DNA of 64,000 nucleotides, taken from contig OZ024756.1 in the NCBI GenBank assembly GCA_964016885.1, positions 13,516,001 through 13,580,000 of the forward strand, read 5' to 3'. Position 1 is the stretch's first letter. Each line of letters opens with the position of its first letter. Source of the DNA: Eledone cirrhosa (Eukaryota). Made by a program: the position numbers and the translations under genes. The notes below the pieces were generated by a model, which worked only from the letters and a program-made list of their open reading frames with translations, did not search any database and was not told the origin of the DNA. Shown piece by piece: positions 9,228 to 28,951 of this stretch.

Positions 9228-9270
9228 ACGTTGCTGACGATAGCTAACAAGCTTGAAACTAGTACAGCGT
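9228..9270 (+). ncRNA. Minimal type I hammerhead ribozyme
   Basis: acgttg-CTGACGA-t.agct.aaca.agct.t-GAAA-ctaGTA-cagcgt: 6-bp stem I, palindromic stem III ACTAGT, GUA cleavage triplet. Confidence 0.75.
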
Positions 9271-9507
9271 TCCTTTGTCAGTGTTGAACAAACGAGCAAC
9301 GATGGTTGCTAGACACTACGGCTTAATACGGGATGTTTGTTTACAGACACACCGAGCATTATAATAAATGTTCGGTGAATCCATACGTACATATATATAT
9401 ATATGTGTGCATGTATGTATATATATACATACTACTGTACGTCTGTATACATATATGTATGTACGTGTACATACTTATATATATATATATATATATATAT
9501 ATATATA

Positions 9508-9762
9508 TATATATATATGAATGTATATATAGTGTATTTTGCAATACACTGTATGCTTAATAAAAAGCATTTTGAAGACCTTATGCTATTGTTTTAGAGT
9601 AGTGACAGACTCACTTACTTTAATTTCAGCAAACAGTTTGCTGAAATTAAAGTAAGTGAGTCTGTCACTACTCTAAAACAATAGCATAAGGTCTTCAAAA
9701 TGCTTTTTATTAAGCATACAGTGTATTGCAAAATACACTATATATACATTCATATATATATA
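9508..9762. repeat. Perfect palindrome with ~125-bp arms and a 1-nt centre at 9635, set in (TA)n
   Basis: ...taatttcagcaaac a gtttgctgaaatta...; the arms are reverse complements out to the TA tracts. Confidence 0.95.
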
Positions 9763-9859
9763 GCTATTTCAGAGCAACAATTCTAATATATATATATATT
9801 TTTTTATTCATTTAATTTATTAATTTATTGATATTTTATTTGAGTAACCCGAATCTTCC

Positions 9860-10030
9860 TGGTCGTTCTTTTTCGGCTGCACGGGTGATTTTAGGCATGA
9901 TCTCTATGTGTTGGTATTTTAACGATAGTTATAGCCCTGTTTTTTTCCAAATTATTGAGCCCTCTGCCACATATATCGGATATTGTTTATCGTGATTTCG
10001 TGGGCTGATATTCCGAGATTCTCGATTATT
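9860..10030 (-). pseudogene. Possible retroelement RNase H fragment
   Basis: ISAHEIT...CGRGLNNLEKNRAITIVKIPTHRDHA*N loosely resembles the RNase H C-terminal motif VxLxWVPGHxGxxGN. Confidence 0.35.
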
Positions 10031-10427
10031 CTACTATATATATATATATATATATATATATATATACACACGTGATAACTGCAGCTCGATTTCGAGTAAT
10101 GCCACCGCTTGATACTTAAGCATGAGCATCACGGATGTGGCTTTTTAGTCCTGTTAGGGACTTGCCTATGGCCAGCAATACCACGCATCGCAAAAAAATC
10201 TCACATTTCAAGCGATGCGGGCGCTTGAATTTTTTAGGTGGGGGAAAGATTTTGCACAGGGCCAGTCCCACTCTCAGAACATCCAATACATTTACCCACA
10301 AAGAAGAACTAGTCTACATTGGATGCACAGTCGTAGGTTTTATATCAGAGTGGCGTTCTTCTAGAGAGATGTCTTAACGAAGACTAGGAGTCTCTAGCCC
10401 CCCCCCCCCCCCCCCCAAAAAAAAATT

Positions 10428-10605
10428 AGATGGCCGTTGACTCTTCTGAGTTTCTCCGCCATTTGACACGTTTTGTGTTTCATACCGCAGGGTGTCCAAA
10501 ATCACCCTCCTCAGCAAGCAAGCTTTGTGGGGTTGCCGGTTTAGTCGCAGACGACTCGACCATGTACAGGTTGTACTATGTCTCGCGTCTCCCAAGTACC
10601 AGTGT
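10428..10605 (-). mobile_element. RTE-like 5' UTR fragment, related to 29275-29460
   Basis: Reverse-complement similarity to 29275-29460 (GCGACTAAAC.GGCAACCCCAC, GAGGAGGGTGA.TTTGGACA); the RTE assignment is an inference. Confidence 0.5.
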
Positions 10606-26810: not shown

Positions 26811-27086
26811 ATATATATTCACACGCACCAGTCGCTTTCACTCCAATTTATTATAAATTAAATTTATAAATTTATAAATATATATATATATATATATATA
26901 TATATATATATATATATATATATATATATATATATATATATATAATAAATTGGAGTAAAAGCAACTGGTGCGTATGTTTGTTATTGGCAACATGACCCTC
27001 CCAAAGCATAACAATATCGCTTTCAACACACGTTTTCAGATAAAGAATCTTGCTAAACAAATTCAGAAACGAAATATATACATATA

Positions 27087-28055
27087 TCTATATATATAAA
27101 ACTGTGGTTGTCTGTCTGTCTATCGATTTTTGGCACACATCTCCTCTTAGAATCTCTGACGGAATTGCACCGAAATTGCTATACTTGTACATTGAGCCCT
27201 AGCGAAGACATCGGAAAAAAAATATTTCAAATTGACCCACCCTATGTGACGAAATCGAATATAATGTATCGATTTTTGAGCGTAAGTTATCAGTTATTTC
27301 CCTTTGTTCTGTTTACATTGAGCGTCTTACGTAAAAAATTACGCTGGCTTTCTCAGCGTTTAAAATGACATTAACACAATACACGAACAGTTGTCGAGCC
27401 AGCAAAATATTGACCTGCAAAATTCATCAGTTCGAACACTAAGCTTCCGTTTTGCTTCATTTCCATTTAAAAGCATTTTAAAACAATATTTTTACTTGAA
27501 AACAAGTCTATTTAAAGACTACGTAAAACAAGCAAATATTTCGTCGTTAGGCGTGCAGACAGACAGTCGTGCAGAGAGGTGATATACGCGTGCAGACAGA
27601 TAGTCGTGCAGAGAGGTGATATAGGCGTGCAGACAGATAGTCGTGCAGAGAGGTGATATAGGCGTGCAGACAGACAGTCGTGCAGAGAGGTGATATAGGC
27701 GTGCAGACAGATAGTCGTGCAGAGAGGTGATATAGGCGTGCAGACAGACATAACTGATAATTTGGTTACGCTAATGTTTTTCTCTGCGTTGCAGTGTTTA
27801 CATTTTCGATCTTTGTTAATAAATAACCAGTGCAGTTTCTATCCCCAGCATCCTCTTTTGTTATAACATTCGGGTTATCGTTATGTTTTCTTAACTTCAT
27901 AAGGCATATTGTTGGTTGAGGGAATATTAATCAAAAACACCACATGCAAGTCTGCACAGTAGACACTACAGTTTTTAAGCCAAGAAAGAAACTTAACATT
28001 GTAACTTTAACACAGCTACTGAGCGACCCCGAGCAACGCCGGGCTTTACTGCTAG
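27087..28055 (+). mobile_element. Non-autonomous Helitron with an internal 37-bp tandem repeat (about 27548-27750)
   Basis: A|TCTATATATATAAAACTG start and CCCGAGCAACGCCGGG...CTAG|T end, the same termini as 6953-7662. Confidence 0.8.
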
Positions 28056-28056
28056 T

Positions 28057-28636
28057 ATATGATAAAATGGGGAGAAAAATACTGCTGGTAGCACATGGAT
28101 AACATGTAATAAAATAAGTCCCTCATCAGTGATTTGCCGACGATCATAGATATTTCATTGCATTAAAAATCATATACCTCACGTCGGTGCAATAATAACT
28201 AAATTAAGTTATTAGGACAATTAAAACGCGTAAAGCGAGTGAGACAAGATAACAAAGAGTAGAGCTAACCGTAGAAGGAAGGAAACAAGCTTCATAGTTA
28301 TTCTGTTAGCATAAGCTAGGTGAATATATGAGCGCTTAGAAAAAAGACCTTTCGCGAACGAATGCAATGTGAGAAAGAGAGAAATTGCTTTCGTCGCGAA
28401 CGGGGTGAAGTGAGGAGAGGAGAAACAGTGAGTGAGTGAGTGGAAGTGTGAGGAAGAGTTAACTGACATGACAGAGGGGGCGAAAGAAAGTAGGAGAAAC
28501 AGAGAGAATGAGGGAGCAGTAAGAGAGAGAGAAAAAAACAGAATCGCAGTTTAGGTAAATATATGTGATAAAATGGGGAGCAAAATACTGCTGGTAGCAC
28601 ATGGATAACATGTAATAAAATAAGTCCCTCATCAGT
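28057..28636 (-). mobile_element. ~580-bp non-coding element with ~72-bp direct terminal repeats (pseudo-LTR-like); relatives at 18478-18650 and 19270-19780
   Basis: tgataaaatggggag...taagtccctcatcagt occurs at both ends; it contains CTGATGA on the minus strand; the right end abuts TA. Confidence 0.65.
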
Positions 28637-28827
28637 ATATATATACAATACATAAACAGAGAAAGCCTTAAGCGATACTCCAACCAACTCCATCTTACTC
28701 AACAAACATTAGGATATACCTAAGTATTATCCCAATTTAGTGTTTGGGGTGCTAACTAATCAGTATTTCGTCGATAGCTGGTTGTATTATTTTATATGAG
28801 ACATTATTAAATAAATATCTCTTTCCT

Positions 28828-28951
28828 TCCAGACGGCCGTTTCGTTATAAGATTTCTACAATTTGGGATAAATAATTTCCAGGTTATGTAGAAACTTGTA
28901 TATAATCCATAGTTTTATACACAAGCGGGCTCTTATAAACTCATCAGTGGA
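28828..28951 (-). ncRNA. Hammerhead ribozyme with a ~95-nt stem II domain
   Basis: Minus strand: tcca-CTGATGA-gtttataaga...tcttataac-GAAA-cggccGTC-tgga; palindromic stem III ACGGCCGT and GUC triplet. Confidence 0.75.

Follow-up and report, generated by a model that had tools for sequence, protein, structure and literature searches.

The stretch of Eledone cirrhosa DNA analysed here, a 64-kb window (C17:13516001-13580000) of a 3.0-Gb genome, is AT-rich and dense in (TA)n tracts, and 19.8 kb of it (9228-28951) is crowded with predicted hammerhead ribozymes. This span is very probably a pile of insertions into (TA)n, comprising seven families of truncated ends of Penelope-like elements (PLEs) and three units free of open reading frames (ORFs) that are likely copied in trans by PLEs, one of them with a predicted hammerhead in S-G-C order (cleavage site, then GAAA, then CUGANGA). 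This S-G-C-order hammerhead is the most unusual item of the span, and an earlier reading of the same letters (the original prediction) had not described it. The crowd of type I hammerheads around it is for the most part something already known, on a large scale, to which the ORF-less families A and H add members of the retrozymes.

Type I membership was judged by CUGANGA, GAAA and a NUH cleavage site in type I order, together with stems I-III. A descriptor of this kind matched 13 times in the window, every time within the span; with microsatellites stripped from the region and its dinucleotides shuffled, 300 replicates gave a mean of 0.03 and a maximum of 1. It had been loosened after sequence inspection, first for a zero-loop stem III and then for long stem II domains, and the shuffles were scored under equally loosened rules; the narrower version, with the zero-loop stem III allowed, gave 10 matches versus 0.045 in shuffles (0/200 reached 10), the strictest gave 5, and one-substitution core variants brought no extra matches in the scan. 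Twelve of the 13 sites listed in the original prediction pass, the exception being 12153 with its stem I mismatch, and its figure of about 20 motifs is valid only if duplicates and variants are counted. The 13 descriptor matches, which include one from an inverted pair and one duplicate, at 14815, that lies in a local tandem duplication of 2.3 kb (99.7%), are then joined by the site at 12153 along with its own duplicate, by a copy near 26620 with a core deletion and by the three rearranged copies, a total of ~19 in ten families (nine type I and one rearranged). The hammerhead at 28828, on the minus strand, has a 97-nt stem II domain.

These motifs recur and keep their pairing elsewhere in the genome. 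The descriptor matched 506 times in 1.5 Mb of fetched loci, forming 36 clusters that recur in at least 2 loci, and where stem III has at least 4 nt it is a perfect palindrome in 26/34 recurrent clusters (30/34 counting G-U), the descriptor having demanded one pair only. Among 22 variants gathered by core words, with no pairing rule, stem I pairs 1-4 were retained in 86/88 cells with several pair types, and A-like variants showed double changes at 7/10 pairs in 4 sequences, 4/8 rows having been dropped, one because its kinship was doubtful and 3 because an inversion or truncation had interrupted stem I. The cleavage site lies close to the next (TA)5, at a median distance of mostly 20-230 nt, in line with the proposed link between PLE-type hammerheads and (TA)n. 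No hammerhead family was among the Rfam matches listed for the window (the best 150 of 224 rows, E<=1), which were to microsatellite-driven miRNA only, none at gathering score. Single-sequence minimum-energy folding of 12 sequences gave z of only 0 to -1.9 and did not separate the motifs from shuffles. The crowded type I motifs are real, above chance, and are predicted hammerheads of the PLE type. A 26-nt satellite with 82 copies (window 4557-6767) contains CTGACGA/CTGACGG words, yet had zero hammerhead descriptor matches.

Across 40 evenly spaced 10-kb stretches (400 kb) the genome background was 36 type I matches, or 0.9 per 10 kb with a maximum of 5; four stretches reached 4-5, and the seven without TA tracts had none. 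The span, chosen post hoc, stands at 6.6 per 10 kb, ~7x background, and the whole window at 2.0, or 2x. Density, along with diversity, had been put forward as what looked new; by these figures the cluster is a local maximum within a condition found throughout the genome, extrapolating to ~270,000 motifs per genome (95% bootstrap 157,000-404,000). Several families mixed within one genome are described in Cervera 2014 (PMC4209133) and, for coral, in Cervera 2020 (PMC7229834).

The insertions, with letters for the families, are as follows.

8500-9125, plus strand: decayed reverse transcriptase (RT) fragment of a Hydra-type PLE, with stops and frameshifts; the words DIVDFYPSIS and YKPYRKPND (three-frame translation) also occur in the Hydra alignment of the Craig 2021 supplement.
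9204-9483, plus strand: family A, part of the ~420-nt unit, ending at the proximal site; hammerhead 9228-9270.
11941-12233, minus strand: family B, coding-PLE 3' stub; hammerhead 12153-12194, with stem I mismatch.
12269-12779, both strands: family P inverted pair, distal (tail) arm 12269-12603 (minus) and proximal arm 12603-12779 (plus); hammerhead 12495-12539 (minus).
13631-15962, plus strand: local tandem duplicate of 11297-13630, repeating the B and P stubs; hammerhead 14815-14859 (minus); 99.7% after microsatellite collapse, real or an assembly artefact.
16883-17151, plus strand: family C, coding-PLE 3' stub; minimal hammerhead 16936-16970.
17155-17365, both strands: family D, inverted pair of Hydra-type PLE 3' ends; hammerhead 17294-17331 (plus).
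17694-17929, plus strand: family E, coding-PLE 3' stub with CX4CxxC linker (Neptune-like); hammerhead 17787-17822.
18468-18638, minus strand: family S copy, rearranged (S-G-C order) hammerhead fold.
18745-18950, both strands: family F, short inverted pair; hammerhead 18838-18902 (plus).
19269-19796, plus strand: family S, whole 519-nt ORF-less unit between TA tracts; rearranged fold at ~19626-19729.
20433-21069, both strands: family G, inverted pair of Hydra-type PLE 3' ends; hammerheads 20627-20700 (minus) and 20948-21021 (plus).
22014-22368, plus strand: family F, Hydra-type PLE 3' stub and short inverted arm; hammerhead 22249-22308.
22385-23049, minus strand: five ~70-nt terminal stubs of P2 (a subfamily of P), each between TA tracts, without hammerhead.
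23060-23168, minus strand: stub of a family F subfamily; hammerhead 23097-23162.
24764-25156, minus strand: P2 stubs; hammerhead 25062-25104.
26580-27077, both strands: P2 arms in both orientations; hammerhead copy near 26620 with partial core loss.
28056-28636, minus strand: diverged subfamily of family S, 72% to the 19269 type; rearranged fold 28109-28228.
28638-29158, minus strand: family H, part of the ~765-nt unit; hammerhead 28828-28951 with 97-nt stem II domain.

Seven families (P, B, C, D, E, F and G) consist of 3' ends, truncated on their 5' side, of coding, autonomous PLEs with a terminal hammerhead motif, since other genomic copies continue collinearly into RT and GIY-YIG endonuclease (EN) frames. 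Genome searches returned 328 to 3,333 candidates per family, which are not copy numbers, and the best 40 were scored. All seven families have fixed 3' ends and ragged 5' ends; tandem pseudo-long terminal repeats (pLTRs), inverted arms, 5' truncation and an optional tail are present in the PLE families (the tail of E was not resolved). The frames seen are long or full for P, B, C and E, and comprise an EN or RT end only for D, F and G. Copies of P (12495, 14815; subfamily P2 at 25062) are 99-100% identical on many chromosomes, 15/30 loci have either an RT motif or, 411 nt upstream, an EN motif, and in one locus (L032) a stop-free RT and GIY-YIG frame of 1167 aa is flanked by two P cassette copies. 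The best homolog of the P protein is an Octopus vulgaris RT protein (69%), and relatives carry PF00078 and PF01541; a Pfam search of 3 PLE proteins gave zero matches. Family B (12153) is a sister of P with an EN or RT motif upstream in 5/20 loci. Family C (16936) has an EN motif in 10/20 loci and, in L210, two copies with an ORF lying between them, and in L035 and L211 an RT-EN frame is followed by the E end (17787). The linkers of P and E read CX4CxxC and that of C is reduced, judged against the Neptune/Nematis pattern of CX2-5CxxC plus CCHH. EN motifs were found upstream of D (17294) in 8/11 inspected loci (30 fetched), an EN frame 670 nt upstream of F in L204, and an EN frame 1.3 kb upstream of G in L201. 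Thus the statement that the cassettes have no ORFs is correct for the stubs in the window, whereas seven families run into RT/GIY-YIG ORFs elsewhere in the genome.

By their endonuclease motifs D, F and G look to be Hydra-type PLEs: a CxCX5C linker, CxxC, CxH, no CCHH and (TA)n targets are marks of the Hydra clade, which Craig 2021 (PMC8557442) describes with a C-terminal EN, (TA)n targets and canonical hammerheads; Hydra-1_Obim, from Octopus bimaculoides, belongs to it. The present genome adds several families to that set, some of them young, and the assignment was made by motifs rather than by an RT tree. D, F and G were also considered as ORF-less families, an idea rejected when longer upstream stretches showed Hydra-type EN; likewise D is not a fixed 210-nt hairpin element, since its inversion centres vary between copies and the appearance was due to the query. 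A repeat annotation of O. vulgaris lists 31 Penelope-like families with recent activity, and its available text leaves hammerheads unmentioned. The minimal type I hammerheads of metazoan PLE pLTRs, described by Cervera and de la Pena (2014, PMC4209133), share with those here the type I order, a short stem I, an extra base after A9, a palindromic stem III, many families per genome and mostly solo copies from truncated PLEs. They differ in number, ~270,000 estimated here versus 2,000-9,000 quoted there under differing descriptors, and in that some stem II domains here are long and branched (47-97 nt). As side observations on these families, the P frame (L032:5103-8603) has a long N/T/H-rich N-terminal insert resembling the asparagine-rich inserts named for rotifer PLEs; at least 6 P copies lie in tandem context within 110 kb at C4:94.67-94.78 Mb, a possible source locus, and in the copies of this cluster the EN 'EH' word reads 'EP'; and a longer copy of the E parent with RT and EN frames lies just right of the window (L035:804-2823).

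The ends of the insertions point to the mechanism. Families P, A, F, G, B, C, D and S have two preferred end sites downstream of the cleavage site, 40-150 nt apart. Counted from GAAA these lie at 181/241 nt for P, 228/285 for A, 217/263 for B, 132/172 for C, 65/157 for F, 64/211 for G and 59/110 for S, with D ending near 50 and at the tail end and H at 206 only. Insertions end 45-285 nt downstream of the cleavage site and not at it, so that the inserted copies are not ribozyme-trimmed RNAs, contrary to what had been proposed. These two ends correspond to the PLE tail, which for the Anolis Poseidon PLE was traced in vitro to a pair of internal start sites; both strands of the target were cut there and then extended (Frangieh 2024, PMC11167929). 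Inverted insertions join a distal (tailed) to a proximal arm in 65/71 pairs and never two proximal arms. Loci from a family's own search are biased by the query for inverted pairs; in loci fetched for other families, with both arms at a main site, the arrangement was distal plus proximal in 20/20. The rule extends to ORF-less families, with 9/10 pairs of A and 3 pairs of S, which ties A and S to the PLE machinery; many 'other' inverted pairs of A stem from an internal TA/TG-like part and were set aside. That only one arm of inverted PLE pairs carries the tail has already been described in words in the literature.

At these ends the template also overlaps the adjoining TA run, by a mean of 4.1 nt at 14 sites versus 1.1 nt expected from the families' own sequence (p ~1e-5), an excess that persists without family B. 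The distal site of D, and E, were left out of this test, the template beyond the end being unknown there. Most ends share 3-8 nt with (TA)n. It is possible, if rather doubtful, that this overlap plays no part in priming and reflects earlier capture of TA flanks or cutting of the element's own AT-rich end: the anole enzyme primes without homology and cuts AT-rich sequence at the ORF-pLTR junction (Frangieh 2024, PMC11167929), and the main end of C has no overlap at all. Against this, 11/14 sites overlap by at least 3 nt where ~13% would be expected, and usually at both sites of a family. The anole element resembles the families here in its two internal tail-defining start sites, in the cutting and extension of both strands and in its AT-rich targets; it differs in its non-homologous priming and 30-40 nt tail, compared with tails of 40-150 nt and the sharing of 3-8 nt with (TA)n here. 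Priming may thus be helped by short UA pairing here, unlike in the anole element.

In the mechanism that we propose, the PLE endonuclease would cut (TA)n, as the junctions suggest and consistent with the link between linker and TA in Craig 2021. Each freed DNA end may then prime reverse transcription at one of the two fixed internal sites downstream of the hammerhead, possibly aided where a short UA word of the RNA pairs with it, and both cDNAs would end prematurely and be joined head to head, so that only one of the two arms has a tail; the sites, the overlap and the arm pattern are observed, and the priming, the role of pairing and the order of events are what we infer from them. TA would be left on both sides of the insertion, so that targets may multiply and clusters grow, in effect feeding themselves. 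By analogy with known retrozymes, the hammerheads likely cut multimeric transcripts, as dimers via the palindromic stem III, and the ORF-less units would yield unit-length circles whose rolling copying may produce more-than-unit copies and arrays.

Family S consists of a head-to-tail ORF-less unit of 516-522 nt in 8/30 loci, and its copy at 19269 is one whole 519-nt unit. In its three copies in the span (18468-18638, 19269-19796 and 28056-28636) GAAA precedes CUGAUGA. The head-to-tail joint was also found on a contig of a second organism; contigs from two sequencing runs compared with the S unit were uninformative on ends or expression. Searching for the order cleavage site, GAAA, CUGANGA with a descriptor blind to family yielded 55 matches representing 19 distinct sequences, 17 of which are S; the 400-kb background had none, and neither had 5 shuffles made from it. 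For the alignment, 7/28 collected variants were dropped, namely 4 of family B, one that was truncated and 2 without relationship, and copies from the window took the place of one variant. In the resulting 22 variants GAAA is present in 22/22, CUGANGA is intact in 21/22 and H is never G; the six helices are paired in 94.7% of 658 cells with double changes at 15/30 pairs, whereas 0/500 shuffles paired as highly and slid controls gave 25-46%. The strongest covariation falls in stem I (double changes at 4/6 pairs) and the helix of the stem I-II interaction (4/5), and bridging helices 1 and 3 are each 94.3% paired. The checks that the original prediction had suggested, shuffled controls and covariation, thus turned out in its favour for the motifs, and extend to a fold it had missed.

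This order matches type SGC, or HRIMA-1, which cleaves and comes from metatranscriptomes, with none found in genomes of known organisms (Eckert 2023, PMC10085705). Both have the order cleavage site-GAAA-CUGAUGA, a 3-nt linker between stems I and II and a helix tying the other sides of these stems together; S differs in residing in a genomic repeat of an animal and in having one direct stem II pair plus two bridged helices and an extra hairpin. We therefore regard S as a variant of the type SGC hammerhead as modelled here, and not a strict member, since stem II is not formed directly. S is retrozyme-like in being ORF-less and tandem, and is not filed as a standard non-LTR (long terminal repeat) retrozyme because its core is in S-G-C order, without a type I core. 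Strongly diverged S relatives that retain the rearranged fold occur in L266, L091, L082 and L162.

The fold could alternatively be spread over two successive units of a tandem transcript that form a nested, type III-like hammerhead, with helix f as a contact between loop I and loop II, rather than a knot within one molecule. S is indeed arranged head to tail, its helices can be drawn nested across two units, and covariation does not discriminate between the two folds. We nonetheless consider the two-unit fold unlikely: for type SGC, cleavage takes place within one transcript (Eckert 2023, PMC10085705), the motif is closed locally by its outer helix, the 3-nt linker between stems I and II matches type SGC, and the compact layout occurs once in Naiad 3' ends. 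Naiads are PLEs reported to be without canonical hammerheads, with a core or half core noted only (Craig 2021, PMC8557442); unlike them, S has no ORF. Among the sequences supplementing Craig 2021, Naiad_Obim appears by eye to have at its 3' end the S helices in equal order with different letters, including a like loop in the extra hairpin, and Naiad_Parc has a clean hammerhead of C-S-G order. The likeness of S to Naiad rests on this inspection by eye, with no alignment made and no search for a Naiad parent in this genome. Searches of the open-access literature turned up nothing on hammerheads in octopus, on type SGC ones in animal genomes or on any in Naiads.

Of the type I families, A (9228) is a head-to-tail unit of ~420 nt that forms arrays of 16 and 20 units (L212, L213), with no EN motif in 20 loci, and H (28828) is a unit of ~765 nt (755-767 nt in 6 loci) whose upstream side continues into its own 3' end and whose copies are mostly 1-1.3 units. 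Each has one type I hammerhead per unit, and the longest ORFs are 89 aa for A (microsatellite-like) and 57 aa for H. Among the matches listed for the A unit in sequencing runs there was no RNA holder. In L207:43-7117, near copies of A and F, lie what look, by their motifs, like Helitron-like Rep/helicase fragments. A and H fit the metazoan non-LTR retrozymes (Cervera 2020, PMC7229834; Li, Clavereau and Pollet 2026, bioRxiv 10.64898/2026.07.22.740005, where retrozymes are argued to be non-autonomous PLE derivatives) in being ORF-less and head to tail, with one type I hammerhead, a range from monomers to arrays and co-existing PLEs. They differ in that H has 765 nt and mostly 1-1.3 units and that no pLTR likeness was found for A, H and S. 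The PLE footprint of two-site tail and inverted arms carried by A and S was not seen in the available portions of these two papers, and the word 'octopus' is absent from their main texts.

A, H and S might instead have spread as DNA, through satellite-type unequal exchange, TA slippage or a rolling-circle DNA route, with their hammerheads as inherited relics. The long tandem arrays of A would suit such a history, as would the failure to find a partner PLE or a likeness to the tested PLE ends and the observation of cleavage in only 1/9 tested Xenopus dimers (Li 2026, bioRxiv 10.64898/2026.07.22.740005). It is nevertheless improbable, given that near-identical copies of A, H and S are dispersed over many chromosomes, that A (9/10 pairs) and S (3 pairs) show the two-site ends and distal plus proximal arms of coding PLEs, and that compensatory changes occur across subfamilies. 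Copying in trans by PLEs, as the original prediction had supposed for all cassettes, is thus probable for three of the ten families (A, H and S), the other seven being coding PLE ends. That every cassette is a short, ribozyme-processed RNA family moved in trans by a PLE RT is scarcely credible: although all window copies are ORF-less and TA-flanked and A, H and S are genuinely ORF-less, 7/10 families run collinearly into RT/EN frames, 5' ends are ragged and ends do not lie at the cleavage site. By the same count, the result comes close to the case that the original prediction had named as removing its novelty, in which all cassettes map to termini of catalogued PLEs.

Several observations weigh against our preferred reading of piled PLE and PLE-copied insertions. 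Scoring of the best 40 candidates biases the copy structure towards the query. The family B site at 12153 has an intact core with a C-U mismatch in stem I, its other copies being 98-99% identical across this stretch. H has one main end only and no inverted pair, and A, H and S, compared with the seven PLE ends (21 comparisons), showed no sequence likeness above shuffles, so that the partner enzymes are not identifiable from these comparisons. In S, stem III is 92.7% paired with wobble changes only and no double change, and stem II has at most 1-2 direct pairs, both strands pairing with an upstream bridging strand. The main ends of C and D overlap TA by zero and only 2 nt, respectively. Finally, priming by the Anolis element in vitro needed no homology and hammerhead cleavage was dispensable there (Frangieh 2024, PMC11167929).

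Further stubs lie between the listed insertions. TA-flanked stubs at 9503-9767, 11413-11711, 17940-18416 and 21123-21496, some of them perfect fold-backs, match other loci 3-10 times without containing a complete hammerhead, and are probably further PLE ends; a stub at 10990-11260 begins with the 3' half of a hammerhead only (GAAA, palindrome, NUH), probably cut inside stem II. Long (CAA/CAG)n tracts at 25161-26576 and 30840-31825 share a recurring 55-nt non-repeat insert, the first having a P2 stub on each flank in opposite orientations. Elsewhere the window holds an 18.7-kb satellite (40780-59466; 23-nt unit, 796 copies) interrupted by copies resembling short interspersed elements, and highly homogeneous minisatellites of 57 nt x 21 copies (36119-37337) and 37 nt x 5 copies (27548-27748). 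A coding-exon-like stretch lies at 191-1021 (minus strand), possibly of an Hsp70-like family to judge from its words.

Taken together, we incline, with caution, towards a joint claim: that non-circularly permuted hammerheads would be a large class in animal genomes, that they would include an overlooked Naiad ribozyme, used in this genome by a 519-nt ORF-less parasite with thousands of copies, and that S and two type I retrozymes may be copied by Penelope enzymes which, once a (TA)n target is cut, prime from each of its ends on two fixed UA words in a single RNA, a counterpart at microsatellites of telomerase-like annealing. The rearranged hammerhead was previously known from environmental RNA only; here there is a covarying genomic version, and a Naiad end that looks alike in fold. 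If true, the fold of S and Naiad would overturn the view that Naiads lack hammerheads, and it offers a 105-nt RNA that can be assayed. ORF-less units with the two-site tail and inverted-arm footprint of PLEs give direct support to the open proposal that PLEs move animal retrozymes. In addition, the TA overlap and the strict distal plus proximal pairing make testable predictions on priming by microsatellite-targeting PLEs, in a genome whose families include young, near-identical ones and a nearly open ORF.

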